DNA of 64,000 nucleotides. Origin: Eledone cirrhosa (taxonomy: Eukaryota). The position numbers and the translations under genes were made by a program. Below are positions 2,286 to 47,255 of this stretch, in pieces. The number at the start of each line of letters is the position of its first letter. Position 1 is the stretch's first letter. The DNA is taken from positions 388,120,001 to 388,184,000 of the forward strand of contig OZ024740.1 in the NCBI GenBank assembly GCA_964016885.1, written 5' to 3'. A model generated the notes under the pieces. The model was not told the DNA's origin, made no database searches, and worked only from the letters and a program-made list of their open reading frames with translations.

Positions 2286-3185
2286 ATATATTTATTGATA
2301 ATAACAACAATTCAATATTTCAGGTCCGTTTGGGAACAAAATTGACCAATGAAAATACAAAAGGTTTTATGCAGTTCGGTGTGTGTATATACATGTAACT
2401 ACCCTTACACATATTTTACAAAAATGTATGCTCAACATGTATACGCATACCAAAAGGATGGATGCAAATACAAAATTTCAAGGTTAATGTCTCTGTAAGT
2501 TTATAATGCACAGATAAGATGCGTATAGACACATAAATATGAAATAAGTGTATACACATATTCTCATACTCACACATATCCGTACAATCACACACACGCG
2601 CGCGTATATGTATAAACATACACATAATTACGAACATACAAACACACACACACCCCCACTCACATATATATATGTGGATATAATATCATAAACCTAATTA
2701 ATAACATTATTTTAGAAATTAATTTAATTTAAATGTTAGTTAACCTATAAATTTAATTTAATTAAAATTCTATTACAGATGAGAATATAAAATATTGTGT
2801 AATCATAAATTGTGAAAAACCTTTAAATATTACTAATATATACTTAGTAATTTAATTTATAGATTAATTTTAATTTATTTAAACCTTTTATTAAAATTCC
2901 TTTACAGATAAAATATAACAAAATATCGTGTATCCAATGACAGAGAAATAATTTTTAGTATTATAGACCTAATTAATATACATTTTAGAAATATATTTAT
3001 AATTTGGTTTTAAATTTAGTCAACCTGAAAATTTAATTTAATTGGCTTAAAATTAGTATCCTTATACAGACGGATTGCAGAATGTCATGTAATCATAGAA
3101 TGGGATATGTTTTGGATATATACCTAGTTAATATATTCTTTGCAATTTTTGAAAAAATATGTATATGTATGTATGTATATGTATG

Positions 3186-3240
<55 letters not shown>

Positions 3241-4063
3241 GTATGTGTATATGTGTATGTATATGTATATGTATATGTATTAATTTTGATTTCTATTTGC
3301 ATATAATTATATTCTGCTATTGATAAAATACAATATCTGTTTTATTTATTATATACCTAATTAACATATACTATAGAAATTAATATATAATTTTTAATTT
3401 AGTTAACCTATAATTTATATTCTACTACCGATGTAATACTTTATTTGTTTTTTCCCTATTACTAAATTCATTTCCTAATATTGATACCATAACGTTATTA
3501 ACTTTAATTTAGTTATACTATAATTAATACTCTACTACTATTTAACTTCAAAATTCTGCTTCAAATATTATAAACCTAACTAATTTACACCTTAGAAATC
3601 AATATGTTAACTATCTTTAGTTTAGTTAACATATAATTAATGGTATACTTATTTATTTTGAGATGCATAAATTTTGCCTTATTTCTTGTATTTCCTAACA
3701 CTGAAACTATGTAAAAACATACATTGGATCCAGATACAGATAATATTCTATGTTTCTTGAAACATATATTTACTATAATCCCCTTCTCCAACCCCCCCCT
3801 TTCCCCCATACTATTATCATCTGTGTTTGTAAGCGTGTATGTATGAATATATATGTAGGTAGGTGTATATATGTTTGGGTATTTATATCTGAATATAAAA
3901 ATACATATATGCGCATGCAAATAAGAATGTAAGATTGTGTGTATATATATGTTTGTATGTATATATATATGTGTATATATGCATGTGTATATATATGTGT
4001 ATGTGTATGTGTGTATGTATATATATGTGTATATGTGTATATGTGTGTGGGCGTGTATGTGTG

Positions 4064-4104
<41 letters not shown>

Positions 4105-4343
4105 ATGTATGTATGTATATATGTGTGTGTATATATATGTATGTCTCTCTATTTATATGTCTATCTTCGTATCTATGTGGGTATATGTGTGTGTGTGCAT
4201 GTATGCACATGTATGTGTTTACGTGTATATGTGTGTATGTGTATATATGTACGTGTGCGCACATATATATGTGAGTGTGTGTGTGTGTGTGTGTATATGT
4301 ATATATATATATATATCTATGTGTGTATATGTGTCTATATTCG

Positions 4344-4386
<43 letters not shown>

Positions 4387-4603
4387 TATTATTATAATAT
4401 AACTTATGTGTATGTGTGTATATGTGAGGGTGTGTATATGTATATATATGTGTATATATATGTGTAAAAAAATATATATGTGTATGTCTGTTTTTTGTGT
4501 GTGTGTATATATATGTATGTGTATATATATGTGTATGTGTGTGTTTGTATGTGTGTTTATGGTTGTATGTGTGTGTGGGTGTGTATATATATAAGTGTAT
4601 GTG

Positions 4604-4640
<37 letters not shown>

Positions 4641-4952
4641 CTCTATTAATGCGTGTATATATGTATATGCCTTTTTCTTTGTATGTCTGAGTTGTGTGAG
4701 GGTGTAGTGGTGTTTGTATGTATATACGCATATATGGATGCGTATGTATTTGTATATATGAGTATATGTAAGTGCGTATGTATGTATGAATATATATCTA
4801 ATTCTATGTATGAGTATATATGTGTATGTATGTATGTTGTGTGTGTATGTATGTATGTGTCTATGTGTGTATATATATGTATATATGTGTGTTATGTATG
4901 TATGTATGTGTATGTATGTACATATATGTCTATGTATGTGTGTATGTATATG

Positions 4953-4983
<31 letters not shown>

Positions 4984-5196
4984 CTTTATTTTTTATATAT
5001 ATGTGTGTGTGTGTATGTGTGTGTGTGTATATATATCTTTATATATGTGTATGTGTATGTTCGTGTAGGTGTATGTGTGTGTTTGACTATATATGTATGT
5101 GTGTATGTGTGTATGTATGTATATGTATGTGTCTGTACATGTATGTATGTGTATGTACGTATGTGTGTGTATATGTGTATGTATATATATATATAA

Positions 5197-5244
<48 letters not shown>

Positions 5245-5519
5245 GTATCTCTATTTGTATATGTATATGTGTATAGGTATATACCTTTTTCTTTGTATGT
5301 CTGAGTTGTGTGAGAGTGTAGTGGTGTTTGTATGTATATACCGATATATGGATGCGTAAGTATTTGTGTGTATGTATGTATGTCTGTATGTATTTGTGTG
5401 TATATATAGGTATGTATGTGTATATCTGTATGTATATAAGTATGTATGTGTATGTATATGTGCGTGTATGTGCGTGTATATATATGTGTGTCTATATAGT
5501 ATGTGTGATTATATGTGTA

Positions 5520-5567
<48 letters not shown>

Positions 5568-5671
5568 TATATGTATGTGTGTATATGACGTGTATGTGTG
5601 TATATGTATATGTTTATATATGTGTGTGTATGTATGTTCTAAGTGTGGATGTGTGTATATGTATGTGTGTG

Positions 5672-5744
<73 letters not shown>

Positions 5745-6360
5745 TTTCTTGATATATTTCTTTTTTCTTTTTTCTTTTTCTTTTCTTTCCTTTTTAATTT
5801 TTATTTTTTATTTTCTTAGTTTATAGATACATCTATAATAAGCAGTCTGCCCAAACCGTTGAATACTGACCTCTCCCCCCCTCCCACCTAATTTCTGTAT
5901 CTTGATCTAAATGTGTGTGGCAGTGTTTATGTGAGTGAATTAATATCCATGTGCCTATGATATTATATCCACATATATATATGTGAGTGGGGGGGTGTGT
6001 GTGTTTGTATGTTCGTAATTATGTGTATGTTTATACATATACGCGCGCGTGTGTGTGATTGTACGGATATGTGTGAGTATGAGAATATGTGTATACACTT
6101 ATTTCATATTTATGTGTCTATACGCATCTTATCTGTGCATTATAAACTTACAGAGACATTAACCTTGAAATTTTGTATTTGCATCCATCCTTTTGGTATG
6201 CGTATACATGTTGAGCATACATTTTTGTAAAATATGTGTAAGGGTAGTTACATGTATATACACACACCGAACTGCATAAAACCTTTTGTATTTTCATTGG
6301 TCAATTTTGTTCCCAAACGGACCTGAAATTTTGAATTGTTGTTATTATCAATAAATATAT

Positions 6361-6516
6361 TTCATTATTTCTGAAGACGGCGTATATATGTGTTGGTATG
6401 TATATTTAATCTTGATAGTTTGTATAATTTTGTATAATTTTGTACATAGATCTGTTGAATATGCATGCCAATTCTAACACACATATATATCCTAGAAACG
6501 ATCGTTAAATAATGAA
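6361..6516 (+). ncRNA. Type I hammerhead motif with very long helix II (family H1)
   Basis: TTCATTATTT-CTGAAGA-[117 nt closed by TATATATGTG/CACATATATA]-GAAA-CGATCG-TT-AAATAATGAA. Perfect 10-bp helix I and palindromic helix III. Confidence 0.72.
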
Positions 6517-6576
6517 CTTTTTTTGTTTAATATAAGGAACTGTTTCATTGTTTTATTCATTATTTGGTTAATATTT

Positions 6577-6643
<67 letters not shown>

Positions 6644-12017: not shown

Positions 12018-12078
12018 TTTCATTCTGATGAATGAAAGCAAATATCGTTTGCTTTCAAGAAACCACTGGTAAATGAAA
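12018..12078 (+). ncRNA. Type I hammerhead motif (family H5)
   Basis: TTTCATT-CTGATGA-A-TGAAAGCAAA-TATCG-TTTGCTTTCA-A-GAAA-CCACTGG-TA-AATGAAA. 7-bp helix I, 10-bp helix II, GUA cleavage triplet. Confidence 0.85.
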
Positions 12079-12507: not shown

Positions 12508-12850
12508 GTATATGCAGACGCACACATACAGAGACCGAGACACACACATAAATACATACATACATATACATACATACATACATCTATCTATCTATCTATC
12601 TATCTATCTATATCAAATCTAGCTGCCGTCTGTTCTACAGTGTGGATGTCATTCACTTCGCACAGAAGTTTTGTTCAAATTTATTGAGGAAATTTTGTGA
12701 GTTCAAACTTAATTTTGATACAATTGTGTAGCTTGACCCTCCGTCTGAACTGTCAGGCGGTGGGTCAGCTCATCTTTACCCCTCCTAGAGGTGAAAAACC
12801 TGTTTTAAAAAAAAAAATTTTGTGTAAAAAATTTCAATCGTCTAACAGAA

Positions 12851-14728
12851 ATGTTAAACGCAGCGAACGAAAATAGTGGTGGGGGGACAGCGGTAAGAGT
12901 TGTAAGCTCGCACGCTTTAGTCCTCCCTTCCTTCCCAACTAACGTCATAGAGAAGGAAGGAAAAATGAAAATAAAAACGGACGAATCTGCGGAGAAAAAA
13001 TTAAATGTCGAAAACAACGAAGAAAAAAAATTTGAAAAATTGCATGACAATACTAATAACACAAACAAAGACACAACAAACAAAAAAATAACAGTTGAAA
13101 ATAACATAATATCAGAAAACAAAGCAGACGACAAGACTTCATTTGCACAGAAAACAAAGAAATCTTTGACTTATATAGCGGAAAACATTTCAGATGTGGT
13201 ACGAAGGATCACGGACGCAAAACAATACATAAGTGAAGGTGAGAATGGTATTTTATTGGTAAAAATGCCTCAAGAATTCACGAAAGACATTGAAAGCCGA
13301 ACGGTCAAGTTTCGGACCATCAACAACAGTACAAAAAAACCTGAACAGCCTTCTCAAGCAGATATCAAAACAGTACTCGCAGAAGTACTGAATGAAACAA
13401 CTTTCATAAGAAAAGACAGACTGTATGGAAGCCTAGCAATTATCATGAAGAACGAATCGGCGGCAAAAAAATGTGCTTTGTCACCGATTCGTTCGAAAAA
13501 TTTCACCTTTTATCCATCTTATATGGGGAAAAAAACTCAACGCATATGGCTGGACGCAATGATGCCAGATGTGGACTACTGCTGGCTCATAGCTGGCTTC
13601 ATCGATCCAGTGAATGACAACGTGATTTCCATTGGGAAAACCACAGGCAATGCGTTCAGTGGAACAGGTATAGAGCTGGTAGTACAAATGAAGCCTGAAC
13701 GCATCGCCCAAATACCCGACAGAATCCTATTAGAGGACCACGGGTATATAAACATTAGCGTGGAGGGGAGAAGGCCGTCCTGCCATATCTGTGCAGGCAG
13801 AGGGCACCTGAAGGCCGCTTGTCCCCAACTCAACAAAAAGAAAACCCTGCTACCAACACCAGCTCCACCACCACCACCACAACAGATAAACAAACAACAA
13901 AACTCAGTCCCACCCAACCCGTCCCTCAGTAACACCACAACACCACCACAACACAAACAGTCACAACACATTACCCCAAAACAAAATACAGGCCCACCCA
14001 ACCTCTCACTCAATAAAACAACACAACCACCGCAGACACAACACACAACACAGTCTAACATAGTGACATCCATCTCCCCCACAAAGAAAACCAACACGGA
14101 AACATTACCAGCAAACATACCTCTTCCCTCCAACACTGAAGATAACCCAACGAATTCGGAGGAAGAAACGGAGTCCTTCAGACAGATTAAAAGGAAAAAA
14201 AGAAAACATGTGCAAAACACACAAGGACAAACAACCCCCACCCAAATCGCAACACAATCTAACAAAACAGAAAACACCCCTCCAGCAACAAACAAAACCA
14301 AACCTGCCCCTCCCCTCTTCGAAACACTCACACCATCGGAAAAAAAGACACTACACTATACTTACATCAACAGAAACAATAATAAATTAAATGAACTCAT
14401 ATACAATAATCCTTCGGTACAAACCGAAGGTGTAAACTTTGTTTCTTCAGAAAACCACCCACATTTAAAACTAATAAAAATCCCAATGAACCTCTACCAA
14501 AAACTAAAAAAGGATTTTAAGGAGGACGTAGGACCACCCTCTGTCAAACCCATAAACCGCGTCCTACTAAAAAGCTTTCCCCCTCCCCTTCCCCTCCCCA
14601 ACACAACTCCAAACACCCCAACCCCACCACACACCGACGACCCCACACCACCACAAGACACCCCTTCACCCAACACCCCCGACCCCATGGAAGTCGTGCA
14701 ACCCGAACCCCGGGAAGCGGAAAGGTAG
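12851..14728 (+). CDS. Tx1 ORF1p (CCHC zinc knuckle, Pro/Thr/Gln-rich linker)
   Basis: 625-aa ORF with CHICAGRGHLKAAC (CX2CX4HX4C), directly upstream of ORF2. Confidence 0.9.
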   Translation: MLNAANENSGGGTAVRVVSSHALVLPSFPTNVIEKEGKMKIKTDESAEKKLNVENNEEKKFEKLHDNTNNTNKDTTNKKITVENNIISENKADDKTSFAQKTKKSLTYIAENISDVVRRITDAKQYISEGENGILLVKMPQEFTKDIESRTVKFRTINNSTKKPEQPSQADIKTVLAEVLNETTFIRKDRLYGSLAIIMKNESAAKKCALSPIRSKNFTFYPSYMGKKTQRIWLDAMMPDVDYCWLIAGFIDPVNDNVISIGKTTGNAFSGTGIELVVQMKPERIAQIPDRILLEDHGYINISVEGRRPSCHICAGRGHLKAACPQLNKKKTLLPTPAPPPPPQQINKQQNSVPPNPSLSNTTTPPQHKQSQHITPKQNTGPPNLSLNKTTQPPQTQHTTQSNIVTSISPTKKTNTETLPANIPLPSNTEDNPTNSEEETESFRQIKRKKRKHVQNTQGQTTPTQIATQSNKTENTPPATNKTKPAPPLFETLTPSEKKTLHYTYINRNNNKLNELIYNNPSVQTEGVNFVSSENHPHLKLIKIPMNLYQKLKKDFKEDVGPPSVKPINRVLLKSFPPPLPLPNTTPNTPTPPHTDDPTPPQDTPSPNTPDPMEVVQPEPREAER

Positions 14729-14761
14729 GTCTCTACACTCTCCTTTGGCTCTGCCGCCCAC

Positions 14762-17700
14762 ATGGATGTGTTAAGAGTAGGATGTTTGAATGCACGTGGC
14801 CTGGGTTCAACTTGGAAGCAAGCAAAGCTTCTAAATGACCTCAGGTCATGTAGTATAAATGTAATGGTTATCTGTGAGACTCGAATCAGCGTCATGCGGC
14901 AGCTGGCCCCCACCTTCGATGACTTTGAGGTGCATGCATCTCTCTGTCAACCTGGAGGTGGGGGTGGGGTTGTCGTGCTGCTGCAAAAACACCTGGGTCT
15001 TGCCGTACAGGTTGTGCACTCGGACCCGGAGGGTCGTTTGTTGGTGCTAGACGTTGGCAGTAGTGAAAGTGCGGCCTTGAGACTGGTCGCCGTCTACTCC
15101 CCTTTCGGAGCTGAACGGCCCGACTTCTTCCAGCGTTTGGAGACTTTTCTGGGAACGTCGCGTTCCCTGCTTCTAGCGGGGGATTGGAATGACATCCTGG
15201 ATGCACGTTGGGACTATGCAGGAGCATGTCCTAATAGAGGGGGGTGTAACAGCCTCAAGGGGTTACTCGACCGTTTTAACTTGGTCGATAGATATCGACT
15301 AGATTTTCCAACTGTGCCTACCTGGACTTGGAGAAACCACAGTGGTCAATCTAGATCGTACTTAGATAGATTCTTAGTTAGAAGTAAGGATAGGGACATA
15401 TTAAGCTGTCCAGAAATGCGCACGGTTGGCTACACGGATCACAAATTAGTGACCTGCGTGGTCAATCTCGAGAAAACACATAGACAGGGTCCCGGTTACT
15501 GGAAACTTAATTTGTCTTTACCGGCAAAAGAGACTTACAGAAACCGGATTAGCAGATTAGTTAAGGAGAGGTTGACGGGTGCAATCGTCAACAACCGATG
15601 GTGGGCATCTCTCAAAAGAGAGATTAGAACAGAATCAATAAGTTATAGCAAGATGTTAGCTGCCAATAGGAATAGAAACGAGAAAGAATTAACAGGTAAA
15701 TTAGAAGAGGCAATCAAGAGCGAAGATGTGGCCAGAGTGCTGGCATCGAGGACGGCCTTGAACCAGTTTTTCGATGCAAAGCATGAAGGCTGCGTCATTC
15801 GAAGTAAAATACGTGCTCTAGGTAATGAGGGGGCCAAAGCCGTTGGATGGGCCCGCGTGACAGAAGCTAAAAGTGGAAATCGATCCACCATCCGGTCGTT
15901 GCAAGACGAAGATGGACGAGTGATCCGGGAGCCTAAGCAGATGTGCGAGGCCTTTCAAAAGCACTTTGCCCGATTGTTCGGGGGAGGCGAGGGTCCGGGC
16001 CGGGGCGTGGATTTCGGTCCATACCTCGACGGCCTGCCGCGTCTCTCGAGCAAAGAGGCAGAGTCCTGCGAGGGACCAATCTCGGCTGATGAGATCGGAG
16101 ATGCGCTGAGCCAATGCAGCAGACGCAAATCTCCAGGTCTCGATGGTATACCTTACGAACTTTATTTAGCAATGCCGGTCTTCTTCTCCGAACTCCTCGA
16201 AGCGGTCTACTGCAATTGGCAGCAGAACGGGAGAATTCCTTGTTCTGTAGCCAAGGGCGTAGTCACGCTGGTGAGGAAGGACGAGAACAAGGGGGATAGT
16301 ATAAATAATTTTCGGCCCATAACCCTGCTAAACACAGAGTTAAAGATTTTGGCCAAGGTGTTAGCAAAGAGGTTGGCGCTTGTCGTGGGTGGCCTGGTGG
16401 GAGATGCGCAGACATGTGCTATCCCATCCAGGTCCATTCACGATAACCTCCACCTCATGCGATACATCATAGAGAGGGTTGGCAACAAACCCGGCTTCGG
16501 TGGGGCCCTGATCAACTTGGATCAGTCTAAGGCATTCGATAGGGTCGACCATGGTTACCTGGATGCGGTGCTAGCGGCGGCTGGGTTCGGTCCTGTTTTC
16601 AGAGGCTGGATCACTGCCCTACATAGCAACCACATCTGTTCTAGGATCAAGGTGAACGGCTACCTTTCGAAGCCGTTCGAAATCACACGATCCATTCGAC
16701 AGGGGTGCTCTCTCTCCTCCCTTCTGTACGTATTGACTCTCGAGCCTTTACTGAGGAAGTTGGAGTTGTTGCAGGGTATCCCCCTGGAACCAGGATTGAG
16801 CAAAGCGGTGTCGGCCTACGCCGATGACGTAACAGTAATGGTATCAACCGACTCGGAGATCGAGGCGATCGGTACCTTACTGGAGGAGTACGAAAGGTTG
16901 TCAGGAGCGAAACTGAACCGGGAAAAATCCATCGGGCTGCAACTCGGAACGTGGAGAGGCAGACCGATGCCTCCCGATGGTGTCGTCGGACACTGGACGG
17001 AGGGCCCGGTAAAGTTGCTTGGGGTCTGGTTTGGACCGGACCTCCAGGTGGAAAAGAACTGGAACGAGGTTACGAACAAGGTGTTTGCACTAACCCAGAA
17101 ATGGGCCAAGTGTAAGCTGTCCCTAAAAGGCCGGGCGGAGGTGGCGAACATTTACATAGCGTCCGTCACTTACTACCGCCTGACTGTCGTGCCTTGCCCT
17201 AAGGAAACACTCACCACCATGGAACGCATGCTCTTCCAATTTCTTTGGAAGAAGCGTCCTCCTATGGTGAGAAGATCCATCTGCTGCCAACAACCTTCGA
17301 AAGGAGGGCTGGGGATGCCGTGGTTGATGATGCGTAGGCACGCATTAAGGCTACGGCACCTACAGGTATTCCTCACTGGTCAACCGGTGTGGGCTCCGTT
17401 CGTGAAACGAGCCTTTCCGAGACTCGTCTCACTCACCGAGCTACAGTCCTGGGTCAAGCAAAGATCCGGAAAACTGGGAGACTGGCACACTGAGTGTGCT
17501 CAGGCGCTCAGGGCTCTCTGGCAAGCGGGCCGGGCCATCGGTGGAGAATCCACCTCATCATTCTATAGAGGGCTGGTGGCTAGCAGGGGCGATGACACCC
17601 TTGGAGAGTCGCTGGACATGGAAGAAGACGAACTGGCCAGCCTGTTCGGTAGGACTTTCGGCCCAGGACCAATGGACAACTTCCAGAAGTCACTGGCCTG

Positions 17701-18199
17701 GCAGTGCTACCGAGGGGCTCTACCCGTTCGAGAGAGGCTCTACAGACACGGGCGCCCGGGCAGGGATCCCTCAAAAAAGATTTGCCCTAGATGCGTGCGT
17801 CACGAAGAAACCGTGGCGCACGCATTGGTGCAATGTCCGGGCGTGGCTGATCTGTGGGGCTACGCCGAACAACTGCTGTCGCGGGTGGCGCCGATTAAAT
17901 TGACAGCCGAGTCCGTGATGACAATCAAACCGCCTCCCCTCTTCACAAAGGAAGCAAAGGCGGTTTTTCTGTGCGTAATAGCCATGTTGAAAGAGGTTGT
18001 TTGGTGGACACGATTGAAAGGTCTGAGGTCAGGCAACTTCCTCTCTGGCCATAGTCTGGTCTACTTCTTCCGATATCACTTCGGAAGAAGGATAAGAATG
18101 GAGAGAGAGGTGCTTGGCCACAGGCAGTTTTATGAAAGGTGGGTGATAGTGGCGAGAATGGCTCGTGTAAATGGGCCTTCTCTGTATACCATCCTGTAG
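14762..18199 (+). CDS. Tx1 ORF2p: APE endonuclease, reverse transcriptase and C-terminal zinc finger
   Basis: 1145 aa with NARGL, GDWND, YLDR, TDH, GYWKLN, SPGLDG, FRPITLLN, DQSKAFDRV, YADD and CPRC..ET..H...C. Confidence 0.97.
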   Translation: MDVLRVGCLNARGLGSTWKQAKLLNDLRSCSINVMVICETRISVMRQLAPTFDDFEVHASLCQPGGGGGVVVLLQKHLGLAVQVVHSDPEGRLLVLDVGSSESAALRLVAVYSPFGAERPDFFQRLETFLGTSRSLLLAGDWNDILDARWDYAGACPNRGGCNSLKGLLDRFNLVDRYRLDFPTVPTWTWRNHSGQSRSYLDRFLVRSKDRDILSCPEMRTVGYTDHKLVTCVVNLEKTHRQGPGYWKLNLSLPAKETYRNRISRLVKERLTGAIVNNRWWASLKREIRTESISYSKMLAANRNRNEKELTGKLEEAIKSEDVARVLASRTALNQFFDAKHEGCVIRSKIRALGNEGAKAVGWARVTEAKSGNRSTIRSLQDEDGRVIREPKQMCEAFQKHFARLFGGGEGPGRGVDFGPYLDGLPRLSSKEAESCEGPISADEIGDALSQCSRRKSPGLDGIPYELYLAMPVFFSELLEAVYCNWQQNGRIPCSVAKGVVTLVRKDENKGDSINNFRPITLLNTELKILAKVLAKRLALVVGGLVGDAQTCAIPSRSIHDNLHLMRYIIERVGNKPGFGGALINLDQSKAFDRVDHGYLDAVLAAAGFGPVFRGWITALHSNHICSRIKVNGYLSKPFEITRSIRQGCSLSSLLYVLTLEPLLRKLELLQGIPLEPGLSKAVSAYADDVTVMVSTDSEIEAIGTLLEEYERLSGAKLNREKSIGLQLGTWRGRPMPPDGVVGHWTEGPVKLLGVWFGPDLQVEKNWNEVTNKVFALTQKWAKCKLSLKGRAEVANIYIASVTYYRLTVVPCPKETLTTMERMLFQFLWKKRPPMVRRSICCQQPSKGGLGMPWLMMRRHALRLRHLQVFLTGQPVWAPFVKRAFPRLVSLTELQSWVKQRSGKLGDWHTECAQALRALWQAGRAIGGESTSSFYRGLVASRGDDTLGESLDMEEDELASLFGRTFGPGPMDNFQKSLAWQCYRGALPVRERLYRHGRPGRDPSKKICPRCVRHEETVAHALVQCPGVADLWGYAEQLLSRVAPIKLTAESVMTIKPPPLFTKEAKAVFLCVIAMLKEVVWWTRLKGLRSGNFLSGHSLVYFFRYHFGRRIRMEREVLGHRQFYERWVIVARMARVNGPSLYTIL

Positions 18200-18665
18200 G
18201 TAAAGAAGTAAAGGAGAGGGGAGCACCTTCTCCATGTGCTCCCTGGGCAAAGGATTGCACACTTTTTCGGGGGTGTGTGCAACCCCCATCACGTCCCCTC
18301 CCTTTTGAGGTTATTTTCGATTATTTTCATGTTACACCCTTTTTACTCGATTATATGTAAACTCCCCCTTTGTATTTTTCCCTTCTTTTTATGCCTTTAT
18401 GGTAAATAAAGAAATCTATCTATCTATCTATATCAAATCTAGCTGTCGTCTGTTCTACAGTGTGGATGTCATTCACTTCGCACAGAAGTTTTGTTCAAAT
18501 TTATTGAGGAAATTTTGTGAGTTCAAACTTAATTTTGATACAATTGTGTAGCTTGACCCTCCGTCTGAACTGTCAGGCGGTGGGTCAGCTCATCTTTACC
18601 CCTCCTAGAGGTGAAAAACCTGTTTTAAAAAATTTTGTGTAAAAAATTTCAATCGTCTAACAGAA

Positions 18666-20546
18666 ATGTTAAACGCAGCGAACGAAAATAGTGGTGGGGG
18701 GACAGCGGTAAGAGTTGTAAGCTCGCACGCTTTAGTCCTCCCTTCCTTCCCAACTAACGTCATAGAGAAGGAAGGAAAAATGAAAATAAAAACGGACGAA
18801 TCTGCGGAGGAAAAAAAATTAAATGACGAAAACAACGAAAAAAAAAAATTTGAAAAATTGCATGACAATACTAATAACACAAACAAAGACACAACAAACA
18901 AAAAAATAACAGTTGAAAATAACATAATATCAGAAAACAAAGCAGACGACAAGATTTCTTTTGCACAGAAAACAAAGAAATCTTTGACTTATATAGCGGA
19001 AAACATTTCAGATGTGGTACGAAGGATCACGGACGCAAAACAATACATAAGTGAAGGTGAGAATGGTATTTTATTGGTAAAAATGCCTCAAGAATTCACG
19101 AAAGACATTGAAAGCCGAACGGTCAAGTTTCGGACCATCAACAACAGTACAAAAAAACCTGAACAGCCTTCTCAAGCAGATATCAAAACAGTACTCGCAG
19201 AAGTACTGAATGAAACAACTTTCATAAGAAAAGACAGACTGTATGGAAGCCTAGCAATTATCATGAAGAACGAATCGGCGGCAAAAAAATGTGCTTTGTC
19301 ACCGATTCGTTCGAAAAATTTCACCTTTTATCCATCTTATATGGGGAAAAAAACTCAACGCATATGGCTGGATGCAATGATGCCAGATGTGGACTACTGC
19401 TGGCTCATAGCTGGCTTCATCGATCCAGTGAATGACAACGTGATTTCCATTGGGAAAACCACAGGCAATGCGTTCAGTGGAACAGGTATAGAGCTGGTAG
19501 TACAAATGAAGCCTGAACGCATCGCCCAAATACCCGACAGAATCCTATTAGAGGACCACGGGTATATAAACATTAGCGTGGAGGGGAGAAGGCCGTCCTG
19601 CCATATCTGTGCAGGCAGAGGGCACCTGAAGGCCGCTTGTCCCCAACTCAACAAAAAGAAAACCCTGCTACCAACACCAGCTCCACCACCACCACCACAA
19701 CAGATAAACAAACAACAAAACTCAGTCCCACCCAACCCGTCCCTCAGTAACACCACAACACCACCACAACACAAACAGTCACAACACATTACCCCAAAAC
19801 AAAATACAGGCCCACCCAACCTCTCACTCAATAAAACAACACAACCACCGCAGACACAACACACAACACAGTCTAACATAGTGACATCCATCTCCCCCAC
19901 AAAGAAAACCAACACGGAAACATTACCAGCAAACATACCTCTTCCCTCCAACACTGAAGATAACCCAACGAATTCGGAGGAAGAAACGGAGTCCTTCAGA
20001 CAGATTAAAAGGAAAAAAAGAAAACATGTGCAAAACACACAAGGACAAACAACCCCCACCCAAATCGCAACACAATCTAACAAAACAGAAAACACCCCTC
20101 CAGCAACAAACAAAACCAAACCTGCCCCTCCCCTCTTCGAAACACTCACACCATCGGAAAAAAAGACATTACACTATACTTACATCAACAGAAACAATAA
20201 TAAATTAAATGAACTCATATACAATAATCCTTCGGTACAAACCGAAGGTGTAAACTTTGTTTCATCAGAAAACCACCCACATTTAAAACTAATAAAAATC
20301 CCAATGAACCTCTACCAAAAACTAAAAAAGGATTTTAAGGAGGACGTAGGACCACCCTCTGTCAAACCCATAAACCGCGTCCTACTAAAAAGCTTTCCCC
20401 CTCCCCTTCCCCTCCCCAACACAACTCCAAACACCCCAACCCCACCACACACCGACGACCCCACACCACCACAAGACACCCCTTCACCCAACACCCCCGA
20501 CCCCATGGAAGTCGTGCAACCCGAACCCCGGGAAGCGGAAAGGTAG
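18666..20546 (+). CDS. Tx1 ORF1p (copy A2)
   Basis: 626 aa with the same zinc knuckle. Confidence 0.9.
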   Translation: MLNAANENSGGGTAVRVVSSHALVLPSFPTNVIEKEGKMKIKTDESAEEKKLNDENNEKKKFEKLHDNTNNTNKDTTNKKITVENNIISENKADDKISFAQKTKKSLTYIAENISDVVRRITDAKQYISEGENGILLVKMPQEFTKDIESRTVKFRTINNSTKKPEQPSQADIKTVLAEVLNETTFIRKDRLYGSLAIIMKNESAAKKCALSPIRSKNFTFYPSYMGKKTQRIWLDAMMPDVDYCWLIAGFIDPVNDNVISIGKTTGNAFSGTGIELVVQMKPERIAQIPDRILLEDHGYINISVEGRRPSCHICAGRGHLKAACPQLNKKKTLLPTPAPPPPPQQINKQQNSVPPNPSLSNTTTPPQHKQSQHITPKQNTGPPNLSLNKTTQPPQTQHTTQSNIVTSISPTKKTNTETLPANIPLPSNTEDNPTNSEEETESFRQIKRKKRKHVQNTQGQTTPTQIATQSNKTENTPPATNKTKPAPPLFETLTPSEKKTLHYTYINRNNNKLNELIYNNPSVQTEGVNFVSSENHPHLKLIKIPMNLYQKLKKDFKEDVGPPSVKPINRVLLKSFPPPLPLPNTTPNTPTPPHTDDPTPPQDTPSPNTPDPMEVVQPEPREAER

Positions 20547-20579
20547 GTCTCTACACTCTCCTTTGGCTCTGCCGCCCAC

Positions 20580-23500
20580 ATGGATGTGTTAAGAGTAGGA
20601 TGTTTGAATGCACGTGGCCTGGGCTCAACTTGGAAGCAAGCAAAGCTTCTAAATGACCTCAGGTCATGTAGTATAAATGTAATGGTTATCTGTGAGACTC
20701 GAATCAGCGTCATGCGGCAGCTGGCCCCCACCTTCGATGACTTTGAGGTGCATGCATCTCTCTGTCAACCTGGAGGTGGGGGTGGGGTTGTCGTGCTGCT
20801 GCAAAAACACCTGGGTCTTGCCGTACAGGTTGTGCACTCGGACCCGGAGGGTCGTTTGTTGGTGCTAGACGTTGGCAGTAGTGAAAGTGCGGCCTTGAGA
20901 CTGGTCGCCGTCTACTCCCCTTTCGGAGCTGAACGGCCCGACTTCTTCCAGCGTTTGGAGACTTTTCTGGGAACGTCGCGTTCCCTGCTTCTAGCGGGGG
21001 ATTGGAATGACATCCTAGATGCACGTTGGGACTATGCAGGAGCATGTCCTAATAGAGGGGGGTGTAACAGCCTCAAGGGGTTACTCGACCGTTTTAACTT
21101 GGTCGATAGATATCGACTAGATTTTCCAACTGTGCCTACCTGGACTTGGAGAAACCACAGTGGTCAATCTAGATCGTACTTAGATAGATTCTTAGTTAGA
21201 AGTAAGGATAGGGACATATTAAGCTGTCCAGAAATGCGCACGGTTGGCTACACGGATCACAAATTAGTGACCTGCGTGGTCAATCTCGAGAAAACACATA
21301 GACAGGGTCCCGGTTACTGGAAACTTAATTTGTCTTTACCGGCAAAAGAGACTTACAGAAACCGGATTAGCAGATTAGTTAAGGAGAGGTTGACGGGTGC
21401 AATCGTCAACAACCGATGGTGGGCATCTCTCAAAAGAGAGATTAGAACAGAATCAATAAGCTATAGCAAGATGTTAGCTGCCAATAGGAATAGAAACGAG
21501 AAAGAATTAACAGGTAAATTAGAAGAGGCAATCAAGAGCGAAGATGTGGCCAGAGTGCTGGCATCGAGGACGGCCTTGAACCAGTTTTTCGATGCAAAGC
21601 ATGAAGGCTGCGTCATTCGAAGTAAAATACGTGCTCTAGGTAATGAGGGGGCCAAAGCCGTTGGATGGGCCCGCGTGACAGAAGCTAAAAGTGGAAATCG
21701 ATCCACCATCCGGTCGTTGCAAGACGAAGATGGACGAGTGATCCGGGAGCCTAAGCAGATGTGCGAGGCCTTTCAAAAGCACTTTGCCCGATTGTTCGGG
21801 GGAGGCGAGGGTCCGGGCCGGGGCGTGAATTTCGGTCCATACCTCGACGGCCTGCCGCGTCTCTCGAACAAAGAGGCGGAGTCCTGCGAGGGACCAATCT
21901 CGGCTGATGAGATCGGAGATGCGCTGAGCCAATGCAGCAGACGCAAATCTCCAGGTCTCGATGGTATACCTTACGAACTTTATTTAGCAATGCCGGTCTT
22001 CTTCTCCGAACTCCTCGAAGCGGTCTACTGCAATTGGCAGCAGAACGGGAGAATTCCTTGTTCTGTAGCCAAGGGCGTAGTCACGCTGGTGAGGAAGGAC
22101 GAGAACAAGGGGGATAGTATAAATAATTTTCGGCCCATAACCCTGCTAAACACAGAGTTAAAGATTTTGGCCAAGGTGTTAGCAAAGAGGTTGGCGCTTG
22201 TCGTGGGTGGCCTGGTGGGAGATGCGCAGACATGTGCTATCCCATCCAGGTCCATTCACGATAACCTCCACCTCATGCGATACATCATAGAGAGGGTTGG
22301 CAACAAACCCGGCTTCGGTGGGGCCCTGATCAACTTGGATCAGTCTAAGGCATTCGATAGGGTCGACCATGGTTACCTGGATGCGGTGCTAGCGGCGGCT
22401 GGGTTCGGTCCTGTTTTCAGAGGCTGGATCACTGCCCTACATAGCAACCACATCTGTTCTAGGATCAAGGTGAACGGCTACCTTTCGAAGCCGTTCGAAA
22501 TCACACGATCCATTCGACAGGGGTGCCCTCTCTCCTCCCTTCTGTACGTATTGACTCTCGAGCCTTTACTGAGGAAGTTGGAGTTGTTGCAGGGTATCCC
22601 CCTGGAACCAGGATTGAGCAAAGCGGTGTCGGCCTACGCCGATGACGTAACAGTAATGGTATCAACCGACTCGGAGATCGAGGCGATCGGTACCTTACTG
22701 GAGGAGTACGAAAGGTTGTCAGGAGCGAAACTGAACCGGGAAAAATCCATCGGGCTGCAACTCGGAACGTGGAGAGGCAGACCGATGCCTCCCGATGGTG
22801 TCGTCGGACACTGGACGGAGGGCCCGGTAAAGTTGCTTGGGGTCTGGTTTGGACCGGACCTCCAGGTGGAAAAGAACTGGAACGAGGTTACGAACAAGGT
22901 GTTTGCACTAACCCAGAAATGGGCCAAGTGTAAGCTGTCCCTAAAAGGCCGGGCGGAGGTGGCGAACATTTACATAGCGTCCGTCACTTACTACCGCCTG
23001 ACTGTCGTGCCTTGCCCTAAGGAAACACTCACCACCATGGAACGCATGCTCTTCCAATTTCTTTGGAAGAAGCGTCCTCCTATGGTGAGAAGATCCATCT
23101 GCTGCCAACAACCTTCGAAAGGAGGGCTGGGGATGCCGTGGTTGATGATGCGTAGGCACGCATTAAGGCTACGGCACCTACAGGTATTCCTCACTGGTCA
23201 ACCGGTGTGGGCTCCGTTCGTGAAACGAGCCTTTCCGAGACTCGTCTCACTCACCGAGCTACAGTCCTGGGTCAAGCAAAGATCCGGAAAACTGGGAGAC
23301 TGGCACACTGAGTGTGCTCAGGCGCTCAGGGCTCTCTGGCAAGCGGGCCGGGCCATCGGTGGAGAATCCACCTCATCATTCTATAGAGGGCTGGTGGCTA
23401 GCAGGGGCGATGACACCCTTGGAGAGTCGCTGGACATGGAAGAAGACGAACTGGCCAGCCTGTTCGGTAGGACTTTCGGCCCAGGACCAATGGACAACTT

Positions 23501-24017
23501 CCAGAAGTCACTGGCCTGGCAGTGCTACCGAGGGGCTCTACCCGTTCGAGAGAGGCTCTACAGACACGGGCGCCCGGGCAGGGATCCCTCAAAAAAGATT
23601 TGCCCTAGATGCGTGCGTCACGAAGAAACCGTGGCGCACGCATTGGTGCAATGTCCGGGCGTGGCTGATCTGTGGGGCTACGCCGAACAACTGCTGTCGC
23701 GGGTGGCGCCGATTAAATTGACAGCCGAGTCCGTGATGACAATCAAACCGCCTCCCCTCTTCACAAAGGAAGCAAAGGCGGTTTTTCTGTGCGTAATAGC
23801 CATGTTGAAAGAGGTTGTTTGGTGGACACGATTGAAAGGTCTGAGGTCAGGCAACTTCCTCTCTGGCCATAGTCTGGTCTACTTCTTCCGATATCACTTC
23901 GGAAGAAGGATAAGAATGGAGAGAGAGGTGCTTGGCCACAGGCAGTTTTATGAAAGGTGGGTGATAGTGGCGAGAATGGCTCGTGTAAATGGGCCTTCTC
24001 TGTATACCATCCTGTAG
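20580..24017 (+). CDS. Tx1 ORF2p (copy A2), apparently intact
   Basis: 1145 aa with RQGCPLS and YADD intact. Confidence 0.97.
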   Translation: MDVLRVGCLNARGLGSTWKQAKLLNDLRSCSINVMVICETRISVMRQLAPTFDDFEVHASLCQPGGGGGVVVLLQKHLGLAVQVVHSDPEGRLLVLDVGSSESAALRLVAVYSPFGAERPDFFQRLETFLGTSRSLLLAGDWNDILDARWDYAGACPNRGGCNSLKGLLDRFNLVDRYRLDFPTVPTWTWRNHSGQSRSYLDRFLVRSKDRDILSCPEMRTVGYTDHKLVTCVVNLEKTHRQGPGYWKLNLSLPAKETYRNRISRLVKERLTGAIVNNRWWASLKREIRTESISYSKMLAANRNRNEKELTGKLEEAIKSEDVARVLASRTALNQFFDAKHEGCVIRSKIRALGNEGAKAVGWARVTEAKSGNRSTIRSLQDEDGRVIREPKQMCEAFQKHFARLFGGGEGPGRGVNFGPYLDGLPRLSNKEAESCEGPISADEIGDALSQCSRRKSPGLDGIPYELYLAMPVFFSELLEAVYCNWQQNGRIPCSVAKGVVTLVRKDENKGDSINNFRPITLLNTELKILAKVLAKRLALVVGGLVGDAQTCAIPSRSIHDNLHLMRYIIERVGNKPGFGGALINLDQSKAFDRVDHGYLDAVLAAAGFGPVFRGWITALHSNHICSRIKVNGYLSKPFEITRSIRQGCPLSSLLYVLTLEPLLRKLELLQGIPLEPGLSKAVSAYADDVTVMVSTDSEIEAIGTLLEEYERLSGAKLNREKSIGLQLGTWRGRPMPPDGVVGHWTEGPVKLLGVWFGPDLQVEKNWNEVTNKVFALTQKWAKCKLSLKGRAEVANIYIASVTYYRLTVVPCPKETLTTMERMLFQFLWKKRPPMVRRSICCQQPSKGGLGMPWLMMRRHALRLRHLQVFLTGQPVWAPFVKRAFPRLVSLTELQSWVKQRSGKLGDWHTECAQALRALWQAGRAIGGESTSSFYRGLVASRGDDTLGESLDMEEDELASLFGRTFGPGPMDNFQKSLAWQCYRGALPVRERLYRHGRPGRDPSKKICPRCVRHEETVAHALVQCPGVADLWGYAEQLLSRVAPIKLTAESVMTIKPPPLFTKEAKAVFLCVIAMLKEVVWWTRLKGLRSGNFLSGHSLVYFFRYHFGRRIRMEREVLGHRQFYERWVIVARMARVNGPSLYTIL

Positions 24018-24929: not shown

Positions 24930-25745
24930 TTATTTTTCATTTAGCTTGGGTTTGAATTTATCAATAAAATTCTTTTCTTTGATTTTTCTCTTGATTTCAC
25001 TTGGGCTGTGTAATTTGTAGAATGGGAATATTATAAATATTCCCTGACCACATATTGCTAGATTGTTACTTAGGGGTATCTGACGGATATTTGGGTCTCT
25101 GATTTGCTGTCGGTGTACCCGTGCTCGTTGCGATAGTGCATTTCCAGTTTGAGCGACATATATTTCTTCACAATTCGGGCATTTAATGCAGTAAATTAGA
25201 TTTCTGCTTTTGCAGTTCATATTTGCATTTGGGAATATTTTTCCAGTTTTTGTTTTCACATATTGACCGGCGTGTATGGATTGAAATGTGCCGCATCGAC
25301 TATCATTGCATTTAGATACAGTGAATGATTGGTCTTTGTTGTTAAGGTCAAACTTTGCTTTTGTTAGTAATTGCTTCAAATTTTTCGGCTGTCTTTTACT
25401 AAGAGTCAAAGATCGATCTGTGATTAAGCCTTTTAATTCATTATTTTGAGCAATGATCGGTAGGTTTGCTTTGGCAGTGTTGAAGATATTCTGGTGACAT
25501 GGGTCATTATAAATGGTATGACCAGTTCTTGGTTTCTTCTTCCTTGGGTTGCCCTAAGTTGTTGTATAGGTATTTTTATAGCCCGTTGTATGTGAATACA
25601 TAGTGGTTTCAAAATAATGTCAACAAAATTGCTTAGACGATGGGTGGGGCATGTTGGACCAGCTATAATAGGTCTAAGTTTTAAGTCTTTTGGGTGTAGT
25701 AATTTAATGTACTCACTGTTTTGTTCTCTTACTGCCAGTTGTATT
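24930..25745 (-). pseudogene. PLE ORF remnant: RT N-terminal piece joined to linker and GIY-YIG
   Basis: Reads LRPIIAGPTCPTHRLSNFVDIILKPL, then IPIQQLR..VIPF, then CNDSRCGT and NLIYCIKCPNCEEIYVAQT. Confidence 0.8.
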
Positions 25746-25749
25746 TCTT

Positions 25750-26229
25750 TTGACTCTTAGTAAAAGACAGCCGAAAAATTTGAAGCAATTACTAACAAAA
25801 GCAAAGTTTGACCTTAACAACAAAGACCAATCATTCACTGTATCTAAATGCAATGATAGTCGATGCGGCACATGTCAATCCATACACGCCGGTCAATATG
25901 TGAAAACAAAAACTGGAAAAATATTCCCAAATGCAAATATGAACTGCAAAAGCAGAAATCTAATTTACTGCATTAAATGCCCGAATTGTGAAGAAATATA
26001 TGTCGCTCAAACTGGAAATGCACTATCGCAACGAGCACGGGTACACCGACAGCAAATCAGAGACCCAAATATCCGTCAGATACCCCTAAGTAACAATCTA
26101 GCAATATGTGGTCAGGGAATATTTATAATATTCCCATTCTACAAATTACACAGCCCAAGTGAAATCAAGAGAAAAATCAAAGAAAAGAATTTTATTGATA
26201 AATTCAAACCCAAGCTAAATGAACAATAA
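25750..26229 (+). pseudogene. PLE GIY-YIG endonuclease remnant (5'-truncated)
   Basis: CNDSRCGTC Cys motif, NLIYCIKC..C...YVAQT...L..R...H and C-terminal E..FI...KP.LN. Confidence 0.85.
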
Positions 26230-26821: not shown

Positions 26822-26908
26822 GTGTAAAAATTGCATCAACTATATATATATATATATATATATAAGTTAAAACAATGAAATAAAAAATCAAGTCATTAGA
26901 GATATACT

Positions 26909-27048
26909 TCACTGCTTTACGATCGTTTCTAGATGGTGATAATACATTGTATCTATACTCAGTTATTGATCTATGTAAGTTTACAATCTATCAGATAGAG
27001 AGAATATTTACTTACATGCATATCACCAGTTGTTTTCAAAAGCAATAA
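26909..27048 (-). ncRNA. Degenerate long-helix-II hammerhead related to H1
   Basis: Minus strand: TTATTGCTT-TTGAAAA-CAAC-TGGTGATA..TATCACCA-TCTA-GAAA-CGATCG-TA-AAGCAGTGA. Confidence 0.55.
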
Positions 27049-27294
27049 TAATTTTATTCAATAATAATTTTACTCAGAATTACTATCATGTCCATATTTG
27101 GAGGTAGTTGAAGAACTAACGAATCAAATTGACGAAACGTAAAATCATTTAATTTAATAATTATAAAAATATTTATTCTGTCGGATTAAAGAAACAATAT
27201 TTTTTTTAAATATAACCCTGTGCTTTTTCACTTTTAATTTTAACCTATATCTGTTATTGTATGGAACCTATTCAACTACACACACATATATCAG

Positions 27295-27487
27295 AAAGGG
27301 TGTGGTAAAATACCAGGTGGACCATAATCCACCAGAGTACTCGATACTTGGGGTAGTAGAGTGGGTAATATGAAAAGAGTCAGGACCCCGATGACCGAGC
27401 TCCGACCGTTTCGACAGCTAGATCCGAGCATTCGGATCTAGCTGTCGAAACGGCGGGAGCTCAGCCGTCGGGGTCCTGAATCTTTTT
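27295..27487. repeat. Short fold-back repeat (family also at 36385-36543 and 47670-48255)
   Basis: Shared CCAGGTGGACCATAA..AGTACT and GTCGAAACG..GAGCTCAGC.GTCGGGGTC segments. Hairpin at about 27375-27487. Confidence 0.8.
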
Positions 27488-35570: not shown

Positions 35571-36675
35571 GTGTCATTTTTGTGTCATTAGCACGTATTT
35601 GTAAACTCTCAAATATCTAAGGAATTAAACCCAGATCTTTTTTCACTGTGCTAGTAAGACCAAAATATATCAATAGTGGACACCATTGTTTCTGAGGATT
35701 TGCTACATTTATAATCTTTAATAATCTCCATCAAATATTGGCTCGATTGGATTTTCAACAGTCCGTCATTTTGTCCGTTTCGGATTAATGTTCATTAACA
35801 TGCTTACATAAATAGAGTTGGCTTCATTTAATTATATTTATATGCATATGTGTGTATTTGTGAGCGTGTGGTCGTAAACATTCTTTACATAAGCATATAA
35901 TGGCATATAGAGGTTGCTAAAAACTGTATTCCAAATACTTGGCACAAACATTATTCACTTGGTCGGGTTGCATAACACATAATAGGTGACGGCTTAAACA
36001 AATCATTGCAAATAATTAGCTCATGCTGTAATATTGGTATTCATTGAAAAGTGTTGCCAAAGTATTTGTATTTTGAATGCAAATGCTGCAATAGAAAATT
36101 GAAAGAATACGATATGATAAATGACGATACTGCAACAATTATCCATGAGAGTATTATTCGCCACATCTGCCACGACGTAGGATTCCGTAACGCGGAAAAA
36201 ATGCAAATTTCTTTATATCCTTCTTCACACGTTCTCATAACAAGATTAAGCATTCGTGTGGTGTTGATATCTTCGAAACTTATTTCCATGTGTCCATATA
36301 GACGTCTAATTATATAAACTTACTCATACTCACACACGAATTATCTCGGAATATACATACAAACACACACACACATATATAACAAAGAAAGTGTTGTAAG
36401 AAACCAGGTGGACCATAACGCACCAGAGTACTTGATACTTAGGGTAGTAGAGTACGTAATAGGAAAAGAGTCAGGACCCCGACGTTCGGATCCAGCCGTC
36501 GAAACGACCGGAGCTCAGCCGTCGGGGTCCTGACTCTTTTCCTATATATATATATATAGATAGATATATAAAGAGCTAGAAACCACGCGTTGTCGATTAC
36601 TTCACCTGAGTATAGGTGTATAAGGCTATGCTGGAGAATAGGTACAAATATGTTTATACACACACACACACACCA

Positions 36676-45161: not shown

Positions 45162-45202
45162 TATATCAAAATGAAAATCCAAAGACAAGGTAAAATTCCA
45201 AT

Positions 45203-45286
45203 CATTTAATCACGACACGTTTCAATAAGAGATAGATCGATTGTGAAGCTATGATCGATTATCACTGATCTCATCAGGTGAAAATG
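45203..45286 (-). ncRNA. Type I hammerhead (family H8)
   Basis: Minus strand: TCAC-CTGATGA-[47 nt, ATCGAT/ATCGAT stem]-GAAA-CGTG-TC-GTGA. Confidence 0.75.
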
Positions 45287-46651: not shown

Positions 46652-47160
46652 TTACCTTCCAAAAATTCCGCGGAATGTTTTCGAGGTTCTATGTTGACAG
46701 TTGCTGAAAAAATTTGCTCTTCTATTAATTAATAGGGGGCCGCCTCTAATAATATTGAAAGTTTCAGCTATACATAAATTGCAGACGCCAGTGCTGCCGT
46801 TATAAGGTTGGGCTGAACAAACTATGGACCAGGATAAGGAGTGCTCTATATTCTGATGTTTAAGCTTCCAGACTAATTCCGAAAGTGCCATGCTATTTTT
46901 CTTATCTAATCTATTAAAGGTATGGTGGTGATTATGCCATCTAACCTTAAATTCCGTGGCAGTTGCCCCAACATCCCTAAAGGTTCTATTAGGAGTGGAG
47001 ACCTTACAGTCATAGACTATGTTTTTGGTAAGGCATTTCCTAGCCATGGGGCAGGTGGCGGTGCTTCTGCAGTTACATTTTTTGCTATCGATCTGGGTGG
47101 TTTCGGATGGGCCACGGTACCTTTGGGGTCGGGTCTCAGTTCCAGTCTGCTCTATGTGTA
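46652..47160 (-). pseudogene. PLE GIY-YIG endonuclease remnant (CNC..CP..C / C.LC..E type, possibly Naiad-like)
   Basis: KKCNCRSTATCPMARKCLTKNIVY..VGATATEFKVRWHNH..LSELVWKLK..WSIV..CNLCIAE..LIN.R....CQH. Confidence 0.82.
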
Positions 47161-47169
47161 AATTCCCTT

Positions 47170-47255
47170 CATTTTCACCTGATGAGATCAGTGATAATCG
47201 ATCATGGCTTCACAATCGATCTATCTCTTATTGAAACATGTGTCGTGATTAAATG
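47170..47255 (+). ncRNA. Type I hammerhead (family H8, inverted copy)
   Basis: CATTTTCAC-CTGATGA-..-GAAA-CATGTG-TC-GTGATTAAATG. Confidence 0.75.

Follow-up and report, generated by a model that had tools for sequence, protein, structure and literature searches.

The hammerhead motif at positions 6361 to 6516 of the window, by which we mean the whole 64,000-nucleotide stretch of the Eledone cirrhosa genome analyzed here (contig OZ024740.1), is the terminal-repeat (pLTR) hammerhead of a recently active Hydra-clade Penelope-like element (PLE). That it belongs to a PLE at all is practically certain. It is a real, selected structural variant of the Hydra-clade pLTR hammerhead, and its extended helix II arm probably carries control signals of the element, a splice-donor-like site and an unchanging hairpin. 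The explanation that we favor, at a probability of roughly 55%, is that the pLTR hammerhead opens a capped RNA and that the stretched helix II carries 5' control signals.

On the forward strand, the two halves of the ribozyme core, CTGAAGA (6371 to 6377, C3 to G8) and GAAACGATCGTT (6495 to 6506; GAAA-CGATCG-TT, comprising GAAA, a 2-bp helix III, and a palindromic GATC loop), are separated by 117 nt. A perfect 10-bp helix I (TTCATTATTT, 6361 to 6370, paired with AAATAATGAA, 6507 to 6516) and a 10-bp helix II stem (TATATATGTG, 6383 to 6392, paired with CACATATATA, 6480 to 6489) can be read directly from the DNA, as the original prediction had described. The core has the type I form CUGANGA/GAAA/UH with a C3-G8 pair, and helices I, II, and III surround it with covariation; helix III has 2 bp and never varies. 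Cleavage is expected after 6506, by the established hammerhead numbering. The motif pattern had three matches in the window against none in 100 shuffles, and RNA beginning at 6364, which would leave 7 nt of the 5' strand of helix I, folds with a z score of -5.0. The arm between the core halves (6378 to 6494) had been seen as an insert in helix II. The insert is there, but not as a loop: folding and covariation indicate a paired extension of helix II, 117 nt long, forming one irregular hairpin closed by a C.A mismatch. A diverged relative at 26909 to 27048 (-) has the stems and motifs attributed to it, but its core reads TTGAAAA and not CTGAAGA; it lies in a family B pLTR copy with a U3-A8 hammerhead (26860 to 27131 [-], 5' limit approximate). 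The expectation that standard hammerhead searches would miss the motif was also borne out, with no match to the Rfam hammerhead model in the window at gathering thresholds, as expected given the long arm.

The hammerhead lies in a 5'-truncated copy (2682 to 6579 [+]) consisting of a 3.9-kb 3' untranslated region (UTR) and the pLTR, with a short 3' end in (TA)n and no open reading frame (ORF). This copy aligns with a full copy (L300) from the end of the ORF onward. An inverted 5'-truncated copy (1933 to 2691 [-]) carries the same hammerhead at 2285 to 2132, 99% identical and overlooked in the original prediction, and has the longer "tail" end. Between the two 3' ends lies a conserved tail motif, ATTGAGTTCTTCATAC (1975 to 1990 [-]); the 23-nt motif at this place and in L041 and L370 shows 91 to 96% identity between the three families A, B, and D; it is a candidate signal for reverse transcriptase (RT) binding or priming.

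Across the 3.0-Gb AT-rich genome, family A has 9,694 close copies with the full arm and family B has 638 copies with an intact 5' core; the 14-mer CTAGAAACGATCGT has 15,915 matches, versus 12 for its reversed control. The tandem unit measures 6.7 kb and runs from hammerhead through 5' UTR, an 813-amino-acid (aa) ORF, and the 3.9-kb 3' UTR to the next hammerhead. The ATG is 280 to 370 nt downstream of the hammerhead, and the arm is noncoding. The ORF, for which we found 118 homologues and no scoring Pfam family, encodes an RT with a C-terminal GIY-YIG-type endonuclease, including YRDD and VY..YIG, as in PLEs; the pLTR tandems, the inverted truncated copy, and the optional tail are likewise PLE features. 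All 90 scored ORF matches were 99 to 100% identical and stop-free over the first 472 aa, which indicates that the family spread recently. Compared with family A, the best-matching ORF segments are 60 to 78% (B) and 65 to 77% (D) identical.

Assignment to the Hydra clade follows from SDKT, CNCRNKTNC (CxCX5C), CRLC (CxxC), and CNH (CxH) in the ORF, from the absence of a CCHH motif (from visual inspection of 16 of the 33 aligned rows), and from insertion into (TA)n as seen in the 3' flanks. The RWK motif position reads RWR in the family A ORF and RWK or RWR in homologues. A first assignment to the clade "Nematis" was dropped after comparison with these Hydra diagnostics. The unit is not "generally under 3 kb," owing to its 3' UTR; as far as the available part of Craig et al. 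goes, small size in Hydra is a tendency and not diagnostic (PMC8557442).

The window holds further repeats. One hammerhead family with a 47-nt helix II (47173 to 47255 [+] and about 45200 to 45285 [-]) flanks a Hydra-type endonuclease fragment (46670 to 47086) that is 36% identical to the family A ORF. More hammerhead motifs, with 27-nt and 14-nt arms, occur at 12025 (+), about 10870 (+), 31162 (+), and about 28340 (-), and a worn hammerhead may sit near 27115 to 27140. Duplicated GIY-YIG fragments at 24930 to 25553 and 25708 to 26229 (-) have CCHH-type cysteines of another Penelope clade; they were considered as part of the hammerhead element and rejected, having no match to the Hydra ORF. 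Two tandem, near-identical LINEs (12809 to 18199 and 18615 to 24017 [+]), L1/Tx1-like, have an open ORF1 and a 1,156-aa ORF2. An inverted repeat of about 114 nt, rich in GC, lies at 27373 to 27486, with relatives at 36459 to 36545.

Published Hydra-clade type I hammerheads are among the closest known systems. In the available part of Craig et al. (2021, PMC8557442), these share the pLTR position, (TA)n targets, and inverted truncated copies, a C-terminal GIY-YIG ORF with DKT, CxCX5C, CxxC, and CxH, and an optional tail, a short helix III, and a frequent mismatch at the base of helix II. They differ in the arm: the 26 Hydra rows in File S2 of that paper have a stem II of 3 to 7 bp and loops of 3 to 10 nt, whereas the Eledone arms span 95 to 126 nt. 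The published elements are also generally under 3 kb, compared with 6.7 kb here. Hydra-1_Obim is a separate family with a 22-nt arm, and GAAACGATCG had no match in the supplement; the longest arms in the table (about 50 nt) belong to plant PLE-X elements (all PMC8557442). Cervera and de la Peña (2014, PMC4209133) similarly report a short palindromic helix III implying dimers, U3-A8 covariation, and opposite-strand pairs 100 to 700 bp apart, but their "larger than usual" helix II has 7 to 8 bp, and the part of the paper available to us describes no motif inside it. Among 76 related marine-metagenome loci, 30 had a hammerhead, all with arms of 11 to 25 nt; a relaxed rescan of all 76 gave no long arm, and the apical motif described below had one chance match in them, inside an ORF. 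Other hammerhead families of the Eledone genome have arms of 47 to 62 and 96 nt, and long arms are therefore a trait of multiple elements in this genome. The 96-nt arm (L302, 4433 [-]) is branched and unrelated in sequence. A family with a 50- to 52-nt helix II (L303, 4327 and 4895; L304, 5465 [-]; L305, 6861 [-]) has a donor-like GTAAG(T) about 13 nt past the cleavage site.

To assess selection on the fold, we compared 13 hand-picked copies from families A, B, and D, in which changes represent only a few independent events. Pairing was retained in 98.5% of cells, against 27 to 48% in slid controls, and 10 of 26 pairs had changed on both sides, including 3 of 8 in helix I and 5 of 7 in the basal part of helix II; the claim that the structure is under selection is thus upheld. 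The core pair also covaries between C3-G8 and U3-A8. It is C-G in 113 of 114 A and D copies and U-A in 47 of 47 B copies, both counted with an extraction pattern that favored intact cores, and U-A in 99 of the first-listed 100 of the 638 family B matches. In four lineages, helix II folds as a single irregular hairpin (z scores of -2.4 to -7.2), and the distance between core halves is 95 to 126 nt among 161 distinct copies.

Near the tip of the arm, two near-invariant motifs face each other: TGATA(G/A/T)TTTGTA on the 5' side (6413 to 6424) and TACATAGATC on the 3' side (6443 to 6452). Together they total 22 nt and are 92 to 100% identical between the families, compared with 36 to 62% for the adjacent helix II strands and 50 to 73% for 60-nt flanks, in agreement with the original prediction that the insert motifs are more conserved than their surroundings. 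The 3' motif is 100% identical between family representatives and has 16,455 matches genome-wide, versus 460 for a control. The gap between the two halves ranges from 4 to 18 nt, and length changes are confined to the terminal loop. Because 7 of the 8 apical pairs never vary in the 13 copies, the apical hairpin is held at the level of sequence and not by shape alone. The arm may hold a protein-binding or regulatory module, as had been suggested.

The 5' ends of genomic copies suggest where the RNA probably begins. Among the first 100 intact family A copies on contig C1, counting both halves of fold-back pairs, 41 begin at most 8 nt before the core, with 19 starting precisely 7 nt ahead of it; another 4 begin at 11 to 21 nt, and the remaining 55 extend further. 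Genome-wide, 2,738 of 9,061 family A copies (about 30%) lack the parental C before ATTATTT, 7 nt before the core; the nonparental base in its place is G in 619 and A or T in 2,119. There were 464 ends one base shorter, with 9 G in the first 100 (scaled, about 42 G), and 196 ends one base longer, with 14 G in the first 100 (scaled, about 27 G); the counts at 6364 and its neighbors miss any junction base identical to the parental one. When 21 of the G junctions were read by eye, 2 clearly came from fold-back sequence and most others had no visible template. In family B, G makes up 35 of 79 nonparental bases at the equivalent site (hand count; 27046 [-] in the window copy). Family D showed no G excess, with 15 in the first 100 of 109 ends against a background of about 13 to 15%. 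The surrounding TCATT in helix I, with its A at 6364 as +1, is Inr-like. A sharp 5'-end peak with an extra G points to a capped start at 6364, which we hold to be quite likely; untemplated extra G at full-length 5' ends has been attributed to cap copying (PMC3287187).

Could the peak instead be a site where RT drops off or folds back from helix I, and the arm the product of neutral slippage in AT-rich DNA? Many junctions are indeed fold-backs with helix I sequence, the stem strands are (TA/TG)-like, and arms of other families in the genome reach 47 to 96 nt. Helix I is 10 bp long, yet the peak stands at 7 nt, is one base wide, and has an extra G, and the stems of the three families, although of unrelated sequence, still pair, with an invariant apical motif; this account is very improbable. 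We also think it unlikely that the conserved motifs belong, as DNA elements, to an internal promoter downstream of the start, with RNA pairing only rescuing the ribozyme. Their position at +32 to +90 of the putative start would fit such a role, conservation acts on sequence, and the promoter of Penelope itself is internal (PMC2377424), but the gap of 4 to 18 nt between the apical halves fits an RNA loop better. A DPE-like AGACG at +28 to +32 is found in family D, and families A and B have no match; a conserved DPE downstream of the start was therefore rejected. Some pLTRs of families A2 and D (L457, L459 to L462, L483, L545, L554, L556, and L559) are joined, precisely at the putative +1, to the 3' end of a different common repeat (ending GTAGAAACA), possibly through template jumping onto a SINE-like RNA or as a chimeric nonautonomous element.

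Shortly after the capped start that we favor, the arm contains a splice-donor-like hexamer, GTATGT at +33 (6396 to 6401; GTAAGT in family B, at 27015 [-] in the window copy). The hexamer begins between +32 and +34 in all three families. All 57 A1 copies have it at +33 or +34; of 34 A2 and A3 copies, 30 have it at +33 and one more each at +29 and +35; in B and D its position is +32, in 43 of 47 and 22 of 23 copies, respectively (two of those in D reading GTGTGT). The bases around it are only 36 to 50% identical between families. A pyrimidine-rich linker follows, then a branch-point-like YTGAT at the 5' apical motif and an acceptor-like TTACATAG, with its AG at 6448 to 6449; the GT..AG span is mostly 42 to 54 nt. 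An intron motif set (GT donor, branch point, pyrimidine tract, and YAG; consensus as given in the available part of PMC13644364) is thus present in all three families. Several points weigh against its use as an intron: the GT..AG stretch is short, the donor is predicted to be fully paired in families A and D, the donor-to-branch distance would be just 19 to 25 nt, and the ATC after the AG and the entire hairpin are more invariant than splicing requires. The literature searched gave no minimal intron length for cephalopods. A distal candidate acceptor, TAG before TTGAGCTC, lies about 35 nt upstream of the ATG in both A and B but carries mutations in 2 of the 10 distinct full 5' UTRs. Extra GTATGT sites near the ATG in A1 were rejected as the conserved donor, their segment being missing from A2 and B.

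Precisely spliced genomic copies were not found among 16 shortened copies, compared with 9,694 full ones, nor among 8 and 11 sequences retrieved with two further patterns, the latter 11 being an unrelated repeat. This is weak counterevidence, because PLEs retain introns. Contigs from runs not recorded as RNA, searched over two full 5' regions, had no GT..AG joint and are uninformative. The donor has a somewhat less than even chance of being used in splicing, and it is rather doubtful that the 42- to 54-nt GT..AG intron would be spliced as such. Still more speculative is the full proposal that the mRNA begins with a ribozyme whose arm holds a functional intron donor and that U1 and splicing compete with closure of the hairpin, deciding the fate of the RNA.

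An alternative that we consider improbable, though ahead of the other two, is that the arm serves solely as an RNA hairpin to which the RT-endonuclease or a host factor binds, and that the splice-like hexamers are never used. The invariance of the apical pairs, with length changes left to the terminal loop, and the burial of the donor-like site in the predicted fold agree with it, as does the recurrence of TTACAT in the conserved tail motif; a Poseidon hammerhead, moreover, cuts only with its element's protein (PMC11167929). Protein binding leaves the hexamers at +32 to +34 unexplained amid so little identity, however, and the tail motif is nearer the 3' ends, where copying starts.

Cleavage itself probably occurs in vivo, by a modest margin of confidence. 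Copies beginning near the cleavage site numbered 67, versus 18 at a control site, with AT-rich microhomology uncontrolled; hand counts put helix-I template switches at 12 of the 67 and single-A insertions at 5 of the 18, and we rejected these 5' ends as a sign of cleavage, the difference being too weak. Set against the thousands of copies that span the site, the 67 starts imply that copies are usually made from uncut RNA, as in the Anolis Poseidon element PAc. The hammerhead fold of the monomer lies 3 to 5 kcal/mol above the best fold, a point against our favored explanation. This weak monomer fold and the 2-bp palindromic helix III would nevertheless fit slow cleavage assisted by dimer formation or protein, as reported for other PLE hammerheads.

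Under our favored explanation, RNA polymerase II would start at 6364, making the hammerhead the first 150 nt or so of the RNA. Signals needed just behind the start (the donor and the invariant hairpin) would then fall between the core halves, and pairing across the whole arm would keep the core foldable. With its short palindromic helix III, the ribozyme would cut slowly, in dimeric form or assisted by the protein of the element, and new copies would be made mainly from unspliced, uncut RNA, short pLTR-only transcripts included.

Two characterized elements offer parallels. In Drosophila virilis Penelope, the promoter is internal, and a conserved intron of 75 bp lies 46 bp downstream of the start (Schostak et al. 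2008, PMC2377424). According to the available part of that paper, its start lies inside the pLTR and is Inr-like, its conserved donor is a few dozen bases downstream, and the intron is retained in genomic copies. The order differs, in that the Penelope intron ends at helix I and the ribozyme comes after it (PMC2377424), whereas the Eledone element appears to start at helix I, with the splice-like signals within helix II. Likewise, PAc combines a hammerhead in the pLTR with a tail delimited by two 3' ends and uses uncut RNA as template, but its ORF starts in stem II, unlike the distant ATG here (Frangieh et al. 2024, available part, PMC11167929). In the literature searched, many subscription papers lying outside it, neither a helix II of about 100 nt in a PLE hammerhead nor a start site at helix I has been described; the start-site evidence is a new addition of the present analysis.

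The function of hammerheads in PLEs has been called unclear (Craig et al., PMC8557442). With thousands of copies, intact ORFs, a putative start placed to a single base, and three diverged families that mark the important bases, this element family allows a connection among start, splicing, and cleavage to be tested directly. If the proposed competition is real, an arm of about 110 nt would decide between mRNA and an unspliced, cleavable transposition template, and the element would carry a hammerhead whose helix II incorporates a spliceosomal switch. Descriptor searches with a short helix II overlook whole abundant families, and some elements recorded as having a "half core" or no hammerhead may be long-armed.
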